Below, piece after piece: positions 5,814 to 13,130 of a stretch of DNA of 40,000 nt. The DNA comes from Zooshikella sp. RANM57 (GTDB taxonomy: Bacteria; Pseudomonadota; Gammaproteobacteria; Pseudomonadales; Zooshikellaceae), in contig NZ_JBOIUB010000011.1 in NCBI RefSeq assembly GCF_050749885.1, positions 22,118 through 62,117 of the forward strand. Direction: 5' to 3'. Position numbers and translations under genes: made by a program. The first letter of the stretch is position 1. Each line of letters starts with the position of its first letter. Under the pieces are notes generated by a model. That model made no database searches. It was not told where the DNA came from and saw nothing but the letters and a program-made list of their open reading frames with translations.

Positions 5814-6572
5814 TTGCTGGGGCCTGTTAACACTATTCGTGATATGAACAAGATACTTGAACAAGCAGAGAAACTTAAACAAATTAAGTCAATAGAAGCA
5901 CTAACACTGCATTGCAATGAAATTATGGATAGCCTGGATATTGATTATTATATCTTTCGCTATTACCCGCCATTACAATTGACAGAAGATGACATGCTTT
6001 CTTTTGGCAACTATCCAGAACAATGGATTGACTATTACGATATTAATGAATTGGTTAAAATTGATCCAATCCATCTTCATTGTAAAAGCCACAGTACTCC
6101 TATATTTTGGCAAGAAGCTAAGAAAATTAAGCAATTCAATGCAAGTGAACACCGCCAAGTTATGACGTTAGCAGAAAGCGCTGGCCTTAAAGATGGTATA
6201 ACAATACCTGTTCATGGCCTGCGCAGAGGGGTTGCTTTTCTAAGTACTGCTTTTCATAGAACGATATCCATTGAGAAGGAAATTCGCAATATCGCTAATA
6301 TTCAATGGATTACACCATTTATCTATGAAGCCGTTAATCGGATAGAATTAAGTAATTCACAAAATAAAACGGTGCTTTCAAAGCGAGAAAAAGAATGCCT
6401 AGCGTGGGCCAGTAGTGGTAAAACATCATGGGAGATCTCTCAAATATTAGGGGTTTCTGAAAGAACCGTTAACTTTCATTTAACAAATGCAACACAAAAA
6501 ACCAATTCATCGAATAGAATACAAGCAATAGCACGCTCAATTATCCACGGAATTATTGAACCAATGTACTAA
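5814..6572 (+). CDS. luxR: LuxR-family AHL-responsive transcriptional regulator
   Basis: The autoinducer-binding domain hallmarks are present (W..Y......DP...........W: EQWIDYYDINELVKIDP...IFW). The C-terminal GerE HTH is present (LSKREKECLAWASSGKTSWEISQILGVSERTVNFHL). The track start is TTG; the ATG at 5844 is an alternative. Confidence 0.9.
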   Translation: MLGPVNTIRDMNKILEQAEKLKQIKSIEALTLHCNEIMDSLDIDYYIFRYYPPLQLTEDDMLSFGNYPEQWIDYYDINELVKIDPIHLHCKSHSTPIFWQEAKKIKQFNASEHRQVMTLAESAGLKDGITIPVHGLRRGVAFLSTAFHRTISIEKEIRNIANIQWITPFIYEAVNRIELSNSQNKTVLSKREKECLAWASSGKTSWEISQILGVSERTVNFHLTNATQKTNSSNRIQAIARSIIHGIIEPMY

Positions 6573-6801
6573 TTTCAGTATATCTAATACACACATCATT
6601 CAACGGCTACATTAAATATCTCTTAAGTATTTTACTTGCTCATTGCTGGCCGTTTGTCACTCAGATCTTCATCACCTATATCAATACCTGTCAAGCTCGC
6701 AGTATCAGCGAGTCAACGCTTTGTTATTCATTTTTGTCTGACAAAACCGATATCACAAGTAACAGTAACCTGGCTTTATCCTCACAAAATTTTTTTCCAA
6801 A

Positions 6802-6821
6802 ACCTGTCATTTTAGCTAGTT
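6802..6821 (+). promoter_or_regulatory. candidate lux-box-like site ACCTGTCATTTTAGCTAGTT upstream of the dioxygenase operon
   Basis: The left half, ACCTGT, equals the V. fischeri lux-box half-site. The pattern is CTG-N10-TAG. The centre lies ~44 nt upstream of the TSS predicted from TATAAT at 6843-6848. The 8-mer ACCTGTCA also occurs at 6686-6693. Dyad symmetry is weak. Confidence 0.3.
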
Positions 6822-6896
6822 ATGTAGCTCCGTATCTCTCCCTATAATTTAAACCACAAAATCACCATCCTAATAAAGAAACACGGTATAACAATA

Positions 6897-7814
6897 ATGA
6901 GTACTTTACTTGAAAATAATAAGTTATCTTCGCTCTTTGATTACTTTGGAACGACTATTTTTAGCCACAATAACGAAGATATAAACCAGCTCCCTTACCA
7001 ATTGCTCATAAAGTCATTGGCAACATCCGGCGTCGTCTTACTTCGGAATTTTGACGTCAATGTGCATACTTTTAGTACATTTATAGAAAATAATTCTGAT
7101 TACGTCACTTTCGACCCTGCTCGAAAACCCACGACAAAAAGTACAGCAGAGATACAAGCAGGTGATGTAGAAATGGGTTTACATATGGAAAATGGAAACC
7201 TTCCATTCTCCCCAGAACTTCAGTGGTTTTATTGTGGGAAGGCTGCCAAAGAAGGTTCAGAAACTACATTCTGTGACGGTTTGACGGTATGGCAAAAACT
7301 ATCACCCATGACCCAGAAGAAATTTTTAAATAAAAAAGTTAAATACTCGCGCGATATTCCTTGGGAAAATGTCAAACGTTATTTATCACTTGAGTTACAA
7401 CAGCCTGTAGATAGAATTACTGACGAGCACCTTGAATATGTTAATGCAATTATTCCTGGCCAAACCTACACGCGTATAAATGATGAATCAATTCATTCTG
7501 AATATGTTGTTTCAGCCGTAATTGATAATGTATTTAATACTGGCCCTTGTTTTTGTAATTCACTAATGAGTCCTAGTGTGAATTATCGGCCTCCTAAAAT
7601 GACCTGGGAAGATGATACTGAAATCTCTGAGTTTGTATGGACTGAGATTAAAGATATTTGCGAAGAATATACACGTGATCATAAATGGCAAGATAATGAT
7701 GTTATTATCGTTGATAACACACGGGTTATGCATGGTCGCAGGAAAGTACTAGATCCTTTACGCAAAATGTTTGGTGCACAAAGCTACCTGGTGGGAGGTA
7801 ACAATGTTAAGTAA
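6897..7814 (+). CDS. TauD/TfdA-family Fe(II)/2-oxoglutarate-dependent dioxygenase
   Basis: 305 aa with the facial triad H-x-E (GLHMENG) and a distal His in DNTRVMHGRR. The overall layout is typical of the clavaminate-synthase-like/TauD family. Confidence 0.75.
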   Translation: MSTLLENNKLSSLFDYFGTTIFSHNNEDINQLPYQLLIKSLATSGVVLLRNFDVNVHTFSTFIENNSDYVTFDPARKPTTKSTAEIQAGDVEMGLHMENGNLPFSPELQWFYCGKAAKEGSETTFCDGLTVWQKLSPMTQKKFLNKKVKYSRDIPWENVKRYLSLELQQPVDRITDEHLEYVNAIIPGQTYTRINDESIHSEYVVSAVIDNVFNTGPCFCNSLMSPSVNYRPPKMTWEDDTEISEFVWTEIKDICEEYTRDHKWQDNDVIIVDNTRVMHGRRKVLDPLRKMFGAQSYLVGGNNVK

Positions 7815-11412: not shown

Positions 11413-11432
11413 CACTGTTATATTTGTCAGTT
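11413..11432 (+). promoter_or_regulatory. candidate lux box CACTGTTATATTTGTCAGTT (ACTG-N12-CAGT; CTG-N10-CAG)
   Basis: It has the canonical CTG-N10-CAG spacing and 6 of 10 dyad pairs. The centre lies ~43 nt upstream of the TSS predicted from a TAACAT -10-like hexamer at 11454-11459, and 59 nt upstream of the luxI ATG. Confidence 0.4.
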
Positions 11433-11490
11433 TCACACCGATCACTTTCAAAATAACATACTTATTAAATGATTTAGGAGATCTGAGAAC

Positions 11491-12093
11491 ATGATCGCAA
11501 CAGCAATTTGCATGGTAAACAAACGCAGCCAATATCCTTCAAGTACATTATATTCAATGCATGATTTACGTTATAGAATATTTTATCAACGTCTTGACTG
11601 GGAAGTCCCTATAAATGCAACACAAGAAAAAGATGAATATGATGATTTAGAGCCTGCTTATATTATTGCCAAATCCCCTTCTGATCAAGTTGTTGGCTGT
11701 ATGCGGCTTTTACCCACAATGGGTAGTTATATGCTTAAAGATACTTTTCCAGAACTGTTAGGTGACTCACCCGCACCACAATGTAACTCTATTATCGAGA
11801 TTAGTCGCTTTGCTGTGGATAAAGACTATAACTTCTTGAATAGTCATGGCATTAACTATGTGTCATTAATGTTATTTAAAAACTTGTATTTGTATTCAAC
11901 ATCTCACGGCTATACATCCGCTGTAGCCGTCACTACCCCTGCTATTGAAAAGTACTTAAAGAAAATAGGCATTAAAGTTAAACGTATAGGTGCACAGAAA
12001 GCAATGCTTGTTGGGAATAGTAAAGCGATTGCTATCCAGTTCAATTTGGACCTTAACTTTTACCTGACTATTAGATCTGCACTTAATCAATAA
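11491..12093 (+). CDS. luxI: LuxI-family acyl-homoserine-lactone synthase
   Basis: 200 aa with the conserved LuxI residues and blocks: LRYRIFYQRLDWEV, EKDEYDDL, GCMRLLPT, IIEISRFAV. Confidence 0.92.
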   Translation: MIATAICMVNKRSQYPSSTLYSMHDLRYRIFYQRLDWEVPINATQEKDEYDDLEPAYIIAKSPSDQVVGCMRLLPTMGSYMLKDTFPELLGDSPAPQCNSIIEISRFAVDKDYNFLNSHGINYVSLMLFKNLYLYSTSHGYTSAVAVTTPAIEKYLKKIGIKVKRIGAQKAMLVGNSKAIAIQFNLDLNFYLTIRSALNQ

Positions 12094-12095
12094 TT

Positions 12096-13130
12096 ATGAA
12101 TACTTCTGACACACATTATATGTCAAAAGCGTTAAATATCGCTGAACAACAAAAATTGATGAACTGCAAACCGCCTTATATCGGTTGTGTTATCGTCAGC
12201 CAAGATGCCAATATTATTGGCACTGCCTGGTATGACCACGAATTGCACTGGTCCATTGTAATAAATGAAATTTCGTCATTAGCCGACGCTTGCCATCAGG
12301 CAACTCTCTATATTACACATTGTCCAGATAAAGGTTGCCACACTGATTTTGAAGCATGCATCAGTATTATACGTGATTATCAGATTAAACACGTTATCTT
12401 TGGCAGCTTCACGAGTGAAAATATTGAACAAGTACCTTTTATTAAAGCAATGAGATTACAGGGCATACAGGTTTCAGTAGGGGTTCTAAAAAATGAATGT
12501 TTTGCAATAAATAAATTTTTTTACAATGCTTATACAAAGCACTTACCCTGGTTATGTGGACAATACACCATTGACTTTAGCCAGCAAGATTACCCAGTAT
12601 ATCAAAATAGTATATCATCGCTTAAATTATTTGATATTTGCAAACAGTATGATGCGTGGATAATAGCCCCTGATTTTATTCCGTACTTAGTAAATAATGA
12701 TGACTTTACCCGTATTCTGGCACATACCTTTGGATCAATTATTGTTATAGATAGCAACCTTGAAAAAAGTAAACAATATCTAGAAATACTACCCTCTCAT
12801 AAAACGACTGTTTATCACTCATCCCCAAATACGCCTTTGGAAAAAACAGGTGATCAACCTGAATTTCTACCCATTCCCATTAAAAGTACTACACAAGCAG
12901 GTTATTATATTGACTGGAAGTATATTCTCAGTAGTTTAGTAAACTCTGATATATATTCAGCTGTTATTAATATTGATAGTGCTCTTTTACATGAGTTATA
13001 TACATGTAATGTGTTAAATGAAGTCGATATTAGCTTTCATCCAAGTTTTAATGCTGACGACAAAATCAATTACACCTCCGTTGACTACAACCCTATTCTT
13101 GGAGGACTTAATATTCAATATACTTTATAA
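12096..13130 (+). CDS. divergent RibD-like protein (CMP/dCMP-deaminase-fold N-domain lacking the catalytic HAE glutamate)
   Basis: The ATG lies 2 nt after the luxI stop. The N-terminus aligns to RibD (YMSKALNIAE.., PYIGCVIV, ATLYIT.CP....C). However, PHAE is replaced by LHWS, and the reductase-domain motif KxAxSLDG is not recognisable. Confidence 0.55.
   Translation: MNTSDTHYMSKALNIAEQQKLMNCKPPYIGCVIVSQDANIIGTAWYDHELHWSIVINEISSLADACHQATLYITHCPDKGCHTDFEACISIIRDYQIKHVIFGSFTSENIEQVPFIKAMRLQGIQVSVGVLKNECFAINKFFYNAYTKHLPWLCGQYTIDFSQQDYPVYQNSISSLKLFDICKQYDAWIIAPDFIPYLVNNDDFTRILAHTFGSIIVIDSNLEKSKQYLEILPSHKTTVYHSSPNTPLEKTGDQPEFLPIPIKSTTQAGYYIDWKYILSSLVNSDIYSAVINIDSALLHELYTCNVLNEVDISFHPSFNADDKINYTSVDYNPILGGLNIQYTL

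Follow-up and report, generated by a model that had tools for sequence, protein, structure and literature searches.

Zooshikella sp. RANM57 carries, in the 40,000-nt window analyzed here (contig NZ_JBOIUB010000011.1, positions 22,118 to 62,117), a block of seven genes at positions 5844-13130 of the plus strand: luxR, tauD, an acid-CoA ligase gene, a T_hemolysin-family gene, a pump gene, luxI and a ribD-like gene, all co-directional. We propose that a LasR/LasI-type acyl-homoserine lactone (AHL) circuit switches on its own genes along with a captured operon whose acylated product is exported, an account we hold with somewhat more confidence than doubt. Quorum-sensing (QS) control of the operon is the part of this prediction that we consider rather probable; the assignment of its product to the N-acyl amides, which draws on fold and context, is tentative and falls a little short of an even chance. 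Elsewhere the operon has other regulators, so the luxR/luxI pair most likely took control of it. The locus would thus represent a regulatory capture: in Pseudomonas-like genomes the same four genes stand under LysR, which usually has MarR ahead of it, and in Zooshikella under LuxR/LuxI.

An earlier reading of this DNA from its letters alone (the first-pass annotation) had described seven co-directional genes with a domain for each, and the open reading frame (ORF) listing and profile searches recovered all of them. In homology searches, LuxI, the T_hemolysin-family protein and the RibD-like protein each matched a RANM57 protein at 100% identity. The tight junctions it reported are exact when checked base by base: the tauD stop (7814) and the ligase ATG (7804) overlap by 11 nt, 2 nt separate the ligase stop (9294) from the T_hemolysin ATG (9297), and another 2 nt separate the luxI stop (12093) from the ribD-like ATG (12096). 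Its gene set stands, but its luxR start at TTG 5814 gives way to ATG 5844 (242 aa), which is most likely the true start because similarity to Zooshikella harenae begins precisely there. For the ligase, the longest ORF opens at TTG 7771, yet it is ATG 7804 that yields the 11-nt overlap. The distance from luxR to luxI is 4.9 kb, of which the four-gene insert tauD-ligase-T_hemolysin-MFS takes up 4.3 kb.

A genome scan seeded with T_hemolysin relatives revealed synteny of the complete block and its surroundings with Z. harenae WH53, in the order tnaA, Trp permease, RidA, luxR, tauD, ligase, GNAT, MFS, luxI, ribD-like gene and GH19 chitinase, with identities of 88-99% at the amino-acid and about 89.5% at the nucleotide level. 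Each of the seven genes is intact in that genome, free of frameshifts and stops. The ratio of nonsynonymous to synonymous substitution rates (dN/dS; Nei-Gojobori method, window versus Z. harenae, dS 0.36-0.62) is 0.012 for tauD, 0.030 for the MFS gene, 0.034 for the GNAT gene, 0.046 for luxR, 0.056 for luxI, 0.066 for the ligase and 0.16 for the ribD-like gene, so purifying selection acts on every gene of the block (dN/dS 0.012-0.16). This synteny, together with the intact and constrained genes, means that the arrangement is not a chance juxtaposition. Zooshikella ganghwensis was not among the matches of the genome scan or of the 90% protein clusters; no dedicated test was made for it, and absence of the locus there is only suggestive. 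An Rfam search of positions 5000-14000 (E<=0.1) returned no match.

The third gene of the insert (9297-9887) encodes a 196-aa protein of the T_hemolysin family (PF12261, 5.1e-36, 124.5 bits against a cut-off of 27). A word-based homology search with this protein returned the query alone and relatives were reached only with HMMER, an exhaustive search yielding 837 family representatives (clusters at 50% identity) at E<=1e-3. No other member exceeds 37% identity to this protein, which possesses all 12 family-invariant residues. The first-pass annotation had called it LuxI/GNAT-like, a description that the structure comparisons bear out: the AF2 model is confident (pLDDT 94.8 from a 30-sequence alignment), and its best Foldseek matches in the PDB are LasI, TofI, MesI and FeeM (probability 1.00, TM 0.56-0.62), followed by generic GNATs. 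Alignment of the T_hemolysin profile to the LuxI profile with hhalign (E 8.6e-5, probability 60%) places its E-I-G-S-F (E-x-G-S-F in the family) on the E-I-S-R-F of LuxI (E-x-S-R-F), and a GNAT-like G-x-G pattern is conserved as well. No N-terminal signal peptide is present in the 196-aa sequence. The protein is therefore predicted from its model to be a cytoplasmic acyltransferase with a LuxI/FeeM-type GNAT fold, and not a pore-former.

A known parallel to such a protein is FeeM (PDB 2G0B), like other synthases of N-acyl amino acids, with which it shares the same LuxI-like GNAT fold (TM 0.60-0.62). The glutamate of its conserved motif lies in the same strand motif as that of LuxI, which would fit an acyl-thioester-dependent N-acyltransferase making an amphiphilic amide. 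Unlike FeeM, to which it is about 13% identical, it falls in the separate Pfam family PF12261 rather than PF21926, and its partner is a dedicated adenylating ligase instead of an acyl carrier protein (ACP); its activity here is a prediction.

The other three genes of the insert encode two further enzymes and a transporter. Gene tauD (6897-7814) encodes a 305-aa Fe(II)/2-oxoglutarate dioxygenase (Pfam TauD, 3.2e-33, 116.2 bits), in which H96-x-E98, H279 and the arginines of MHGRR (R281/R282) are invariant across nine homologues linked to T_hemolysin/ligase genes; judged from these residues, the dioxygenase active site is intact. The ligase gene (7804-9294) encodes a 496-aa adenylating acid-CoA ligase of the ANL superfamily (AMP-binding, 2.5e-43, and AMP-binding_C_3) with readable SGTTSKPKG and GKPKR motifs. 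No PDB entry matches it at 1e-20 and there is no close characterised relative in that comparison, so no substrate can be deduced. The fourth gene (10034-11236) encodes a 400-aa Bcr/CflA-type MFS efflux transporter (MFS_1, 2.3e-44; TIGR00710, 207.5 bits against a cut-off of 200.9).

Comparison with other genomes indicates that these four genes form a unit of their own. The genome sample comprised 54 T_hemolysin loci, 52 of them scorable, collected by a scan seeded with a five-sequence alignment and the pattern WG[SR]YY[DE][NH]D and compared with the window proteins by tblastn; because that scan used a single pattern, the 54 loci are a biased sample of the family, with no Vibrio locus among them. 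In 51 of the 52 scorable loci a ligase homologue adjoins the T_hemolysin gene, a pairing which argues that the ligase belongs to the GNAT and not to LuxI. The full set appears in Pseudomonas sp. SDI, where TauD (52% identity), ligase (57%), GNAT (34%) and MFS (60%) follow one another as in the window, preceded by MarR and LysR genes; neither luxR nor luxI is present at that locus. A metagenome scan seeded with TauD added 12 further cassette loci, nine with all four genes and three shortened, mostly of 56-67% G+C; one short contig, which does not extend to its flanks, has 46% G+C and is thus not Pseudomonas-like. LysR lies directly upstream and co-directional in 11 of these 12 loci, with MarR before it in eight, the remaining locus being a short fragment, and no luxR or luxI homologue was found at any of the 12 within their contig DNA. 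In Pseudomonas sp. SDI and nine metagenome loci the pump gene follows the T_hemolysin gene (55-60% identity). The combination tauD-ligase-T_hemolysin-MFS is thus an autonomous, self-contained operon. Zooshikella has no LysR or MarR gene at the corresponding place, and from the cassette layout of the other loci LuxR takes the place of the dedicated LysR. Co-conservation of the insert with luxR/luxI, which had been named beforehand as a test of their relationship, accordingly holds within the two Zooshikella genomes and breaks down elsewhere, where the cassette occurs independently of them.

The 51 other genome loci display a longer operon in the order T_hemolysin, ligase, oxygenase, SDR (48 loci) and TPR-like protein (32 loci). 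The oxygenase is haem-oxygenase-like (PF14518) in 42 loci and TauD instead in eight, never both, and an OmpR-type response regulator and a histidine kinase adjoin the operon in 23 of 52 loci. This wider T_hemolysin operon is strongly conserved and apparently uncharacterised.

The regulatory genes on either side of the insert look conventional. The luxR gene (5844-6572) encodes a 242-aa protein with Autoind_bind (1.2e-28, 99.9 bits) and GerE (2.5e-18, 65.9 bits) domains; its PDB matches include LasR (8e-27) and RhlR (2e-26) as well as CviR, SdiA and QscR. Its pocket motifs GNYPEQW, KIDP and PIFW align with GNYPAAW, RVDP and PIFW of LasR, the residues concerned being, as we take it, the counterparts of LasR Y56, W60, D73 and W88, and the DNA-binding helix is retained. 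The LuxR product is hence predicted to be a LasR/RhlR-like AHL receptor and transcription factor.

The luxI gene (11491-12093), with an AGGAG 9 nt 5' of its ATG, encodes a 200-aa protein (Autoind_synth PF00765, 2.6e-39, 135.1 bits against a cut-off of 24). Residues R27, F31, W37, E46, D51, R72, E103, S105 and R106 are invariant in a 19-sequence alignment that includes the window protein, and presumably correspond to LuxI R24, F28, W34, E43, D48, R70, E101, S103 and R104. The PDB matches to LasI (7.3e-29, residues 6-189) and TofI (5.1e-20, residues 9-171) run along the full length of the protein, and those to the CoA-type enzymes MesI (6.6e-8), BjaI (8.5e-7) and RpaI (7.4e-5) are weak and lie in the N-terminal half (about residues 18-113). 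By this similarity ranking, which is not a curated tree, luxI falls outside the CoA-dependent subgroup of BjaI, RpaI, BraI and MesI. We therefore assign it provisionally to the AHL synthases of the LasI/TofI-like (ACP-type) kind, and the AHL chemistry of the locus itself is probably ordinary. The nearest homologues are about 40% identical and the named ones are Vibrio proteins; at two of these relatives, one from Vibrio and one from another genome, luxI and luxR are plainly adjacent, and neither the cassette nor the ribD-like gene is present.

Two promoter regions would link the circuit to the insert. In the 324-nt luxR-tauD spacer, an island at 6797-6896 is 96% identical to Z. harenae and the rest 71%; it contains the dyad ACCTGTCATTTTAGCTAGTT (CT-N12-AG, 6802-6821), whose start is 41 nt upstream of TATAAT (6843-6848) and which, on its conservation (20/20 in Z. 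harenae) and spacing, is a putative LuxR site in the promoter of tauD. In the MFS-luxI spacer, an island at 11400-11490 is 90% identical and the rest 59%; here the dyad CACTGTTATATTTGTCAGTT (CTG-N10-CAG, 11413-11432), a putative luxI autoinduction site on the same grounds, is conserved at 19/20 positions and begins 41 nt ahead of a -10-like hexamer, TAACAT (11454-11459). The distance from dyad to -10 is thus identical at tauD and luxI, and because each dyad starts 41 nt upstream of its hexamer, its center would lie near -43 of the presumed start. A position near -43 is the classic place of a lux box, and las/rhl boxes have the CT-N12-AG dyad layout. Both dyads have this layout and CTGTYATWTTWGYYAGTT in common, with 13 of 22 aligned bases alike and 18 degenerate positions shared. 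The pattern CTG-N10-CAG occurs nine times in the 40 kb, twice in intergenic DNA, the luxI dyad being one of these two; the degenerate consensus of both dyads has three matches in the window against 1.6 expected by chance, and there is no other good match. A look-alike at about 6685, ACCTGTCAAGCTCGCAGTAT, was rejected since its spacing is 9 nt instead of 10 nt and it is not conserved in Z. harenae. A generic promoter and terminator scan of the sequence gave counts no better than shuffled sequence; the main hairpins were spotted by eye and then confirmed by folding.

Two of these hairpins subdivide the block. Between the pump gene and luxI, a hairpin with a 16-bp stem (11289-11339; -25.8 kcal/mol, z -8.6, 0/200 shuffles folding as well) is a probable bidirectional terminator, and its GGGGCTT/AAGCCCC stem core is kept in Z. 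harenae. Between the GNAT and pump genes, a hairpin followed by T6 (9951-10009) is, from folding and conservation, a probable attenuator or partial terminator inside the operon: a folding energy of -23 kcal/mol (z -2.4) was obtained for the 91 nt from 9915 to 10005 that contain it, the element lies 24 nt before the pump ATG, and the T-run and the downstream ribosome-binding region are conserved in Z. harenae, where the stem sequence diverges. With this hairpin and T6 so close ahead of its ATG, the pump gene probably receives only reduced read-through from the tauD promoter. The transcription units would then be luxR, tauD-ligase-GNAT(-MFS), and luxI with the ribD-like gene. Shortly after the GNAT stop and ahead of this hairpin and T-run lies a perfect 13-nt palindrome, ATCAGCAGCTGAT (9925-9940), also conserved in Z. 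harenae, which might bind a protein or form a small stem.

Upstream of luxR, large indels prevent alignment of most of the 450-nt A+T-rich region 5394-5843 with Z. harenae. Two well conserved blocks remain, one at about 5630-5700 that includes two TATAAT-like hexamers and one at about 5735-5775, and these are probably the luxR promoter and operator.

We propose the following scheme for the locus. LuxI would make an ordinary fatty-acyl homoserine lactone from acyl-ACP and S-adenosylmethionine, and AHL-bound LuxR would bind both lux-box-like dyads, placed near -43 by sequence and conservation. One dyad would drive luxI and the ribD-like gene, giving autoinduction, and the other would drive tauD-ligase-GNAT with attenuated read-through into the pump gene. 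The ligase would turn a carboxylic acid, probably a fatty acid, into its CoA thioester, from which the LuxI/FeeM-fold GNAT would move the acyl group onto an amine acceptor such as an amino acid; the Fe(II)/2-oxoglutarate dioxygenase would hydroxylate the substrate or the product, and the Bcr/CflA pump would export the resulting amphiphilic N-acyl compound. In outline this is the second of two alternatives raised in the first-pass annotation, in which QS governs an N-acyl metabolite that leaves through the MFS pump, and it has become the best-supported reading, with its QS control and its product still at the level of prediction.

Several points weigh against this scheme. The lux-box assignment derives from two sites in two genomes that are about 10% diverged, and the window-wide count of consensus matches is not independent, because the pattern was built from the same two sites. 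On the enzyme side, the searched literature contains no demonstrated enzymatic activity of any T_hemolysin member, and what turned up on the enzymology or operon of the family was virulence-gene listings and a note on the dth region; acceptor, acyl donor and product of the cassette GNAT are guesses. The ACP-type EsaI scores against luxI as low as BjaI does, so the ACP-type assignment of luxI is a ranking and not a phylogeny. Finally, the ribD-like gene, although coupled to luxI, has no role in the model.

The cassette might instead be a passenger that was inserted between luxR and luxI, or around which the QS genes landed, and be regulated independently of QS, its conserved promoter island binding another factor or being a mere core promoter. 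The existence of the cassette elsewhere under MarR/LysR regulators would agree with this, as would the pattern-based nature of the lux-box reading and the G+C content of the block (0.34-0.38), slightly below that of the downstream part of the window (0.40-0.46). We nevertheless think it unlikely, given that 13 of 22 aligned positions agree between the tauD and luxI dyads, which have the same CT-N12-AG layout and equal spacing to the -10, that the tauD dyad is fully conserved where the look-alike nearby is not, and that LuxR sits exactly in the place of LysR with no LysR or MarR gene there in Zooshikella.

Somewhat less likely still is a conjugation-and-efflux detoxification module, in which an incoming organic or aromatic acid is joined to an amino acid and the conjugate pumped out, QS control in Zooshikella being optional. 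The logic of ligase plus GNAT would parallel glycine conjugation by mammalian acyl-CoA ligase and glycine N-acyltransferase (PMC8003330), and a LysR-led layout, with MarR before it in ten of the 13 other loci and with a drug-type Bcr/CflA pump at the end, is typical of stress and detoxification modules. Against this, the wider T_hemolysin operons, with their oxygenase, SDR and TPR-like genes, often a two-component system, and no pump, look biosynthetic. Members of the family were reportedly discovered because their cloning made E. coli haemolytic; such haemolysis speaks for a product made from endogenous substrates.

A different proposal concerns the family as a whole, namely that T_hemolysin proteins are an unrecognised branch of LuxI-fold synthases whose product, supplied by a dedicated acid-CoA ligase and modified by an oxygenase, would be neither toxin nor surfactant but an acylated signal able to diffuse. 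A two-component sensor stands beside the operon in 23 of 52 loci. We regard this as a speculative idea of low probability, comparable to the detoxification module. If true, Zooshikella would harbor a hierarchical two-signal locus, with AHL QS switching on the synthesis and export of a chemically new signal.

The headline of the first-pass annotation was that the ligase, with or without the dioxygenase, feeds an unusual acyl-CoA to a CoA-dependent LuxI, giving a non-standard, possibly hydroxylated acyl-HSL, so that the cassette would be part of signal synthesis in a multi-component circuit like the Mesorhizobium R1-I1-crotonase system. Ligase and luxI do share one co-directional block, both Zooshikella genomes keep the cassette together with luxI, and an accessory enzyme required beside a CoA-type LuxI has a precedent (PMC10470506). 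The evidence above does not support the idea, and we consider it very unlikely: the similarity of luxI to LasI and TofI extends along the entire protein, its matches to MesI, BjaI and RpaI are weak and lie in the N-terminal half, and its closest homologues are Vibrio LuxI-type synthases; the ligase pairs with the GNAT in 51 of 52 loci; 13 other cassette loci lack luxI in their contig DNA and have LysR ahead where upstream DNA is present; and a strong hairpin and a promoter island of its own set luxI apart from the cassette. That the 196-aa protein is truly a thermostable pore-forming haemolysin with unrelated neighbors, as its Pfam and NCBI family name "thermostable hemolysin" would have it, is extremely improbable in view of a confident GNAT-fold model nearest to AHL synthases and FeeM, the lack of an N-terminal signal peptide, the conserved GNAT-like E-x-G-S-F and G-x-G pattern, and the nearly constant coupling of its gene to an adenylating ligase.

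The ribD-like gene (12096-13130) encodes a 344-aa degenerate RibD paralogue that matches dCMP_cyt_deam_1 only (3.6e-8), scores 44.6 bits against the RibD equivalog cut-off of 156.35 and thus fails it, and has no RibD_C match in the profile search. Compared with real RibDs, the H-A-E zinc/catalytic motif reads S-I-V and the reductase half no longer has its EGG. The relatives found were the RANM57 and Z. harenae proteins themselves and one bona fide RibD at 25% identity. The AF2 model, built from three sequences, reaches a pLDDT of only 44.6 and therefore lends no fold support to the C-terminal half. The ORF is nonetheless intact, and it begins 2 nt after luxI without a Shine-Dalgarno sequence; its dN/dS of 0.16 and this translational coupling to luxI argue that the gene is expressed and functional. 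The protein may serve the circuit as a third component without enzymatic activity.

The first-pass annotation had also called a cassette embedded between luxR and luxI unusual, but to regard several genes there as unprecedented would be an overstatement. The common "simple" arrangement has one small regulator (rsaL, rsaM or mupX) between the two genes, and several intervening genes are a recognised class catalogued as "complex topologies" (PMC3386692, PMC3742214). In Burkholderia thailandensis, for instance, btaI2 (BTH_II1227) and btaR2 (BTH_II1231), three locus tags apart, lie inside the bactobolin (bta) cluster that they control (PMC6963729). As in Zooshikella, cluster genes are placed between the LuxR/LuxI pair, and a secondary-metabolite pathway is activated locally by the QS regulator, a role that the Zooshikella model shares. 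The bta genes form a 37-kb polyketide synthase/non-ribosomal peptide synthetase cluster for a known antibiotic, whereas the Zooshikella cargo is a 4.3-kb four-gene ligase/GNAT/dioxygenase/pump operon whose block is, unlike bta, entirely co-directional; and QS control, demonstrated for bta, is deduced in Zooshikella from the conserved lux-box-like dyad at the tauD promoter.

The R1-I1-crotonase system of Mesorhizobium japonicum (PMC10470506) resembles the locus in having an extra enzyme gene linked to luxI, a position equivalent to that of the ribD-like gene; such a linkage suggests that making the signal might take more than LuxI. The Mesorhizobium LuxI clusters with CoA-dependent synthases and that of Zooshikella does not; the Mesorhizobium accessory is a crotonase acting on the acyl chain, whereas the linked Zooshikella gene encodes a catalytically degenerate RibD and the ligase sits in a separate operon. 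With a luxI that does not rank among the CoA type, this three-component circuit can serve as a functional analogy only.

Among AHL systems proper, the closest are LasR/LasI of Pseudomonas aeruginosa, the best sequence matches of luxR (8e-27) and luxI (7e-29), which have the family-invariant residues, and the Vibrio LuxI-type synthases named in the searches (V. fluvialis and Vibrio sp. T187). The window luxI differs from these in being only about 40% identical to any known LuxI and in its translational coupling to an orphan degenerate RibD paralogue, and the pair lies 4.9 kb apart where known pairs are adjacent or have rsaL between them.

A ligase neighbor is also documented for the namesake of the T_hemolysin family, since the V. 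cholerae long-chain-acid CoA ligase DthC (VCA1110) adjoins the delta-thermostable hemolysin (PMC12208996). The delta-VPH/Dth proteins of Vibrio belong to the same Pfam family as the window protein and have the same ligase adjacency. Unlike the dth region, the Zooshikella set has the reversed order, with the ligase before the GNAT, lacks the SDR, HDO and TPR-like genes, and includes a pump and flanking QS genes. What is new here is the cargo, an uncharacterised T_hemolysin-type operon, and the evident exchange of LysR for LuxR/LuxI. The large family that has been named "thermostable hemolysin" since its discovery in Vibrio appears to be misnamed and to consist of LuxI/FeeM-fold acyltransferases. 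The compact cassette of Zooshikella and Pseudomonas, with an exporter of its own, should be handy for identifying the product, which might in turn explain the heat-stable haemolysis.

Further genes of the window flank the block. Directly upstream of luxR, at 2221-5393 and syntenic in Z. harenae, lie genes for a beta-eliminating lyase (tnaA-like), a Trp/Tyr permease and a RidA deaminase, which look like an indole-producing operon, that is, second-signal genes beside the AHL locus. Downstream, the region 13499-24669 encodes a GH19 chitinase, two peptidases (M50 and the LasA-like M23, the latter with a Pro-rich tail), a neutral ceramidase (18001-19998, minus strand) and two S8 subtilases, probable secreted hydrolases of the classes typical of QS targets; no good lux-box match was found in this region, the single match (21299-21316, three mismatches) lying inside a gene. 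Beyond them, two paralogous acyl-CoA dehydrogenase genes (products of about 600 aa with Acyl-CoA_dh_C) occupy 24813-26597 and 28035-29837 on the minus strand.

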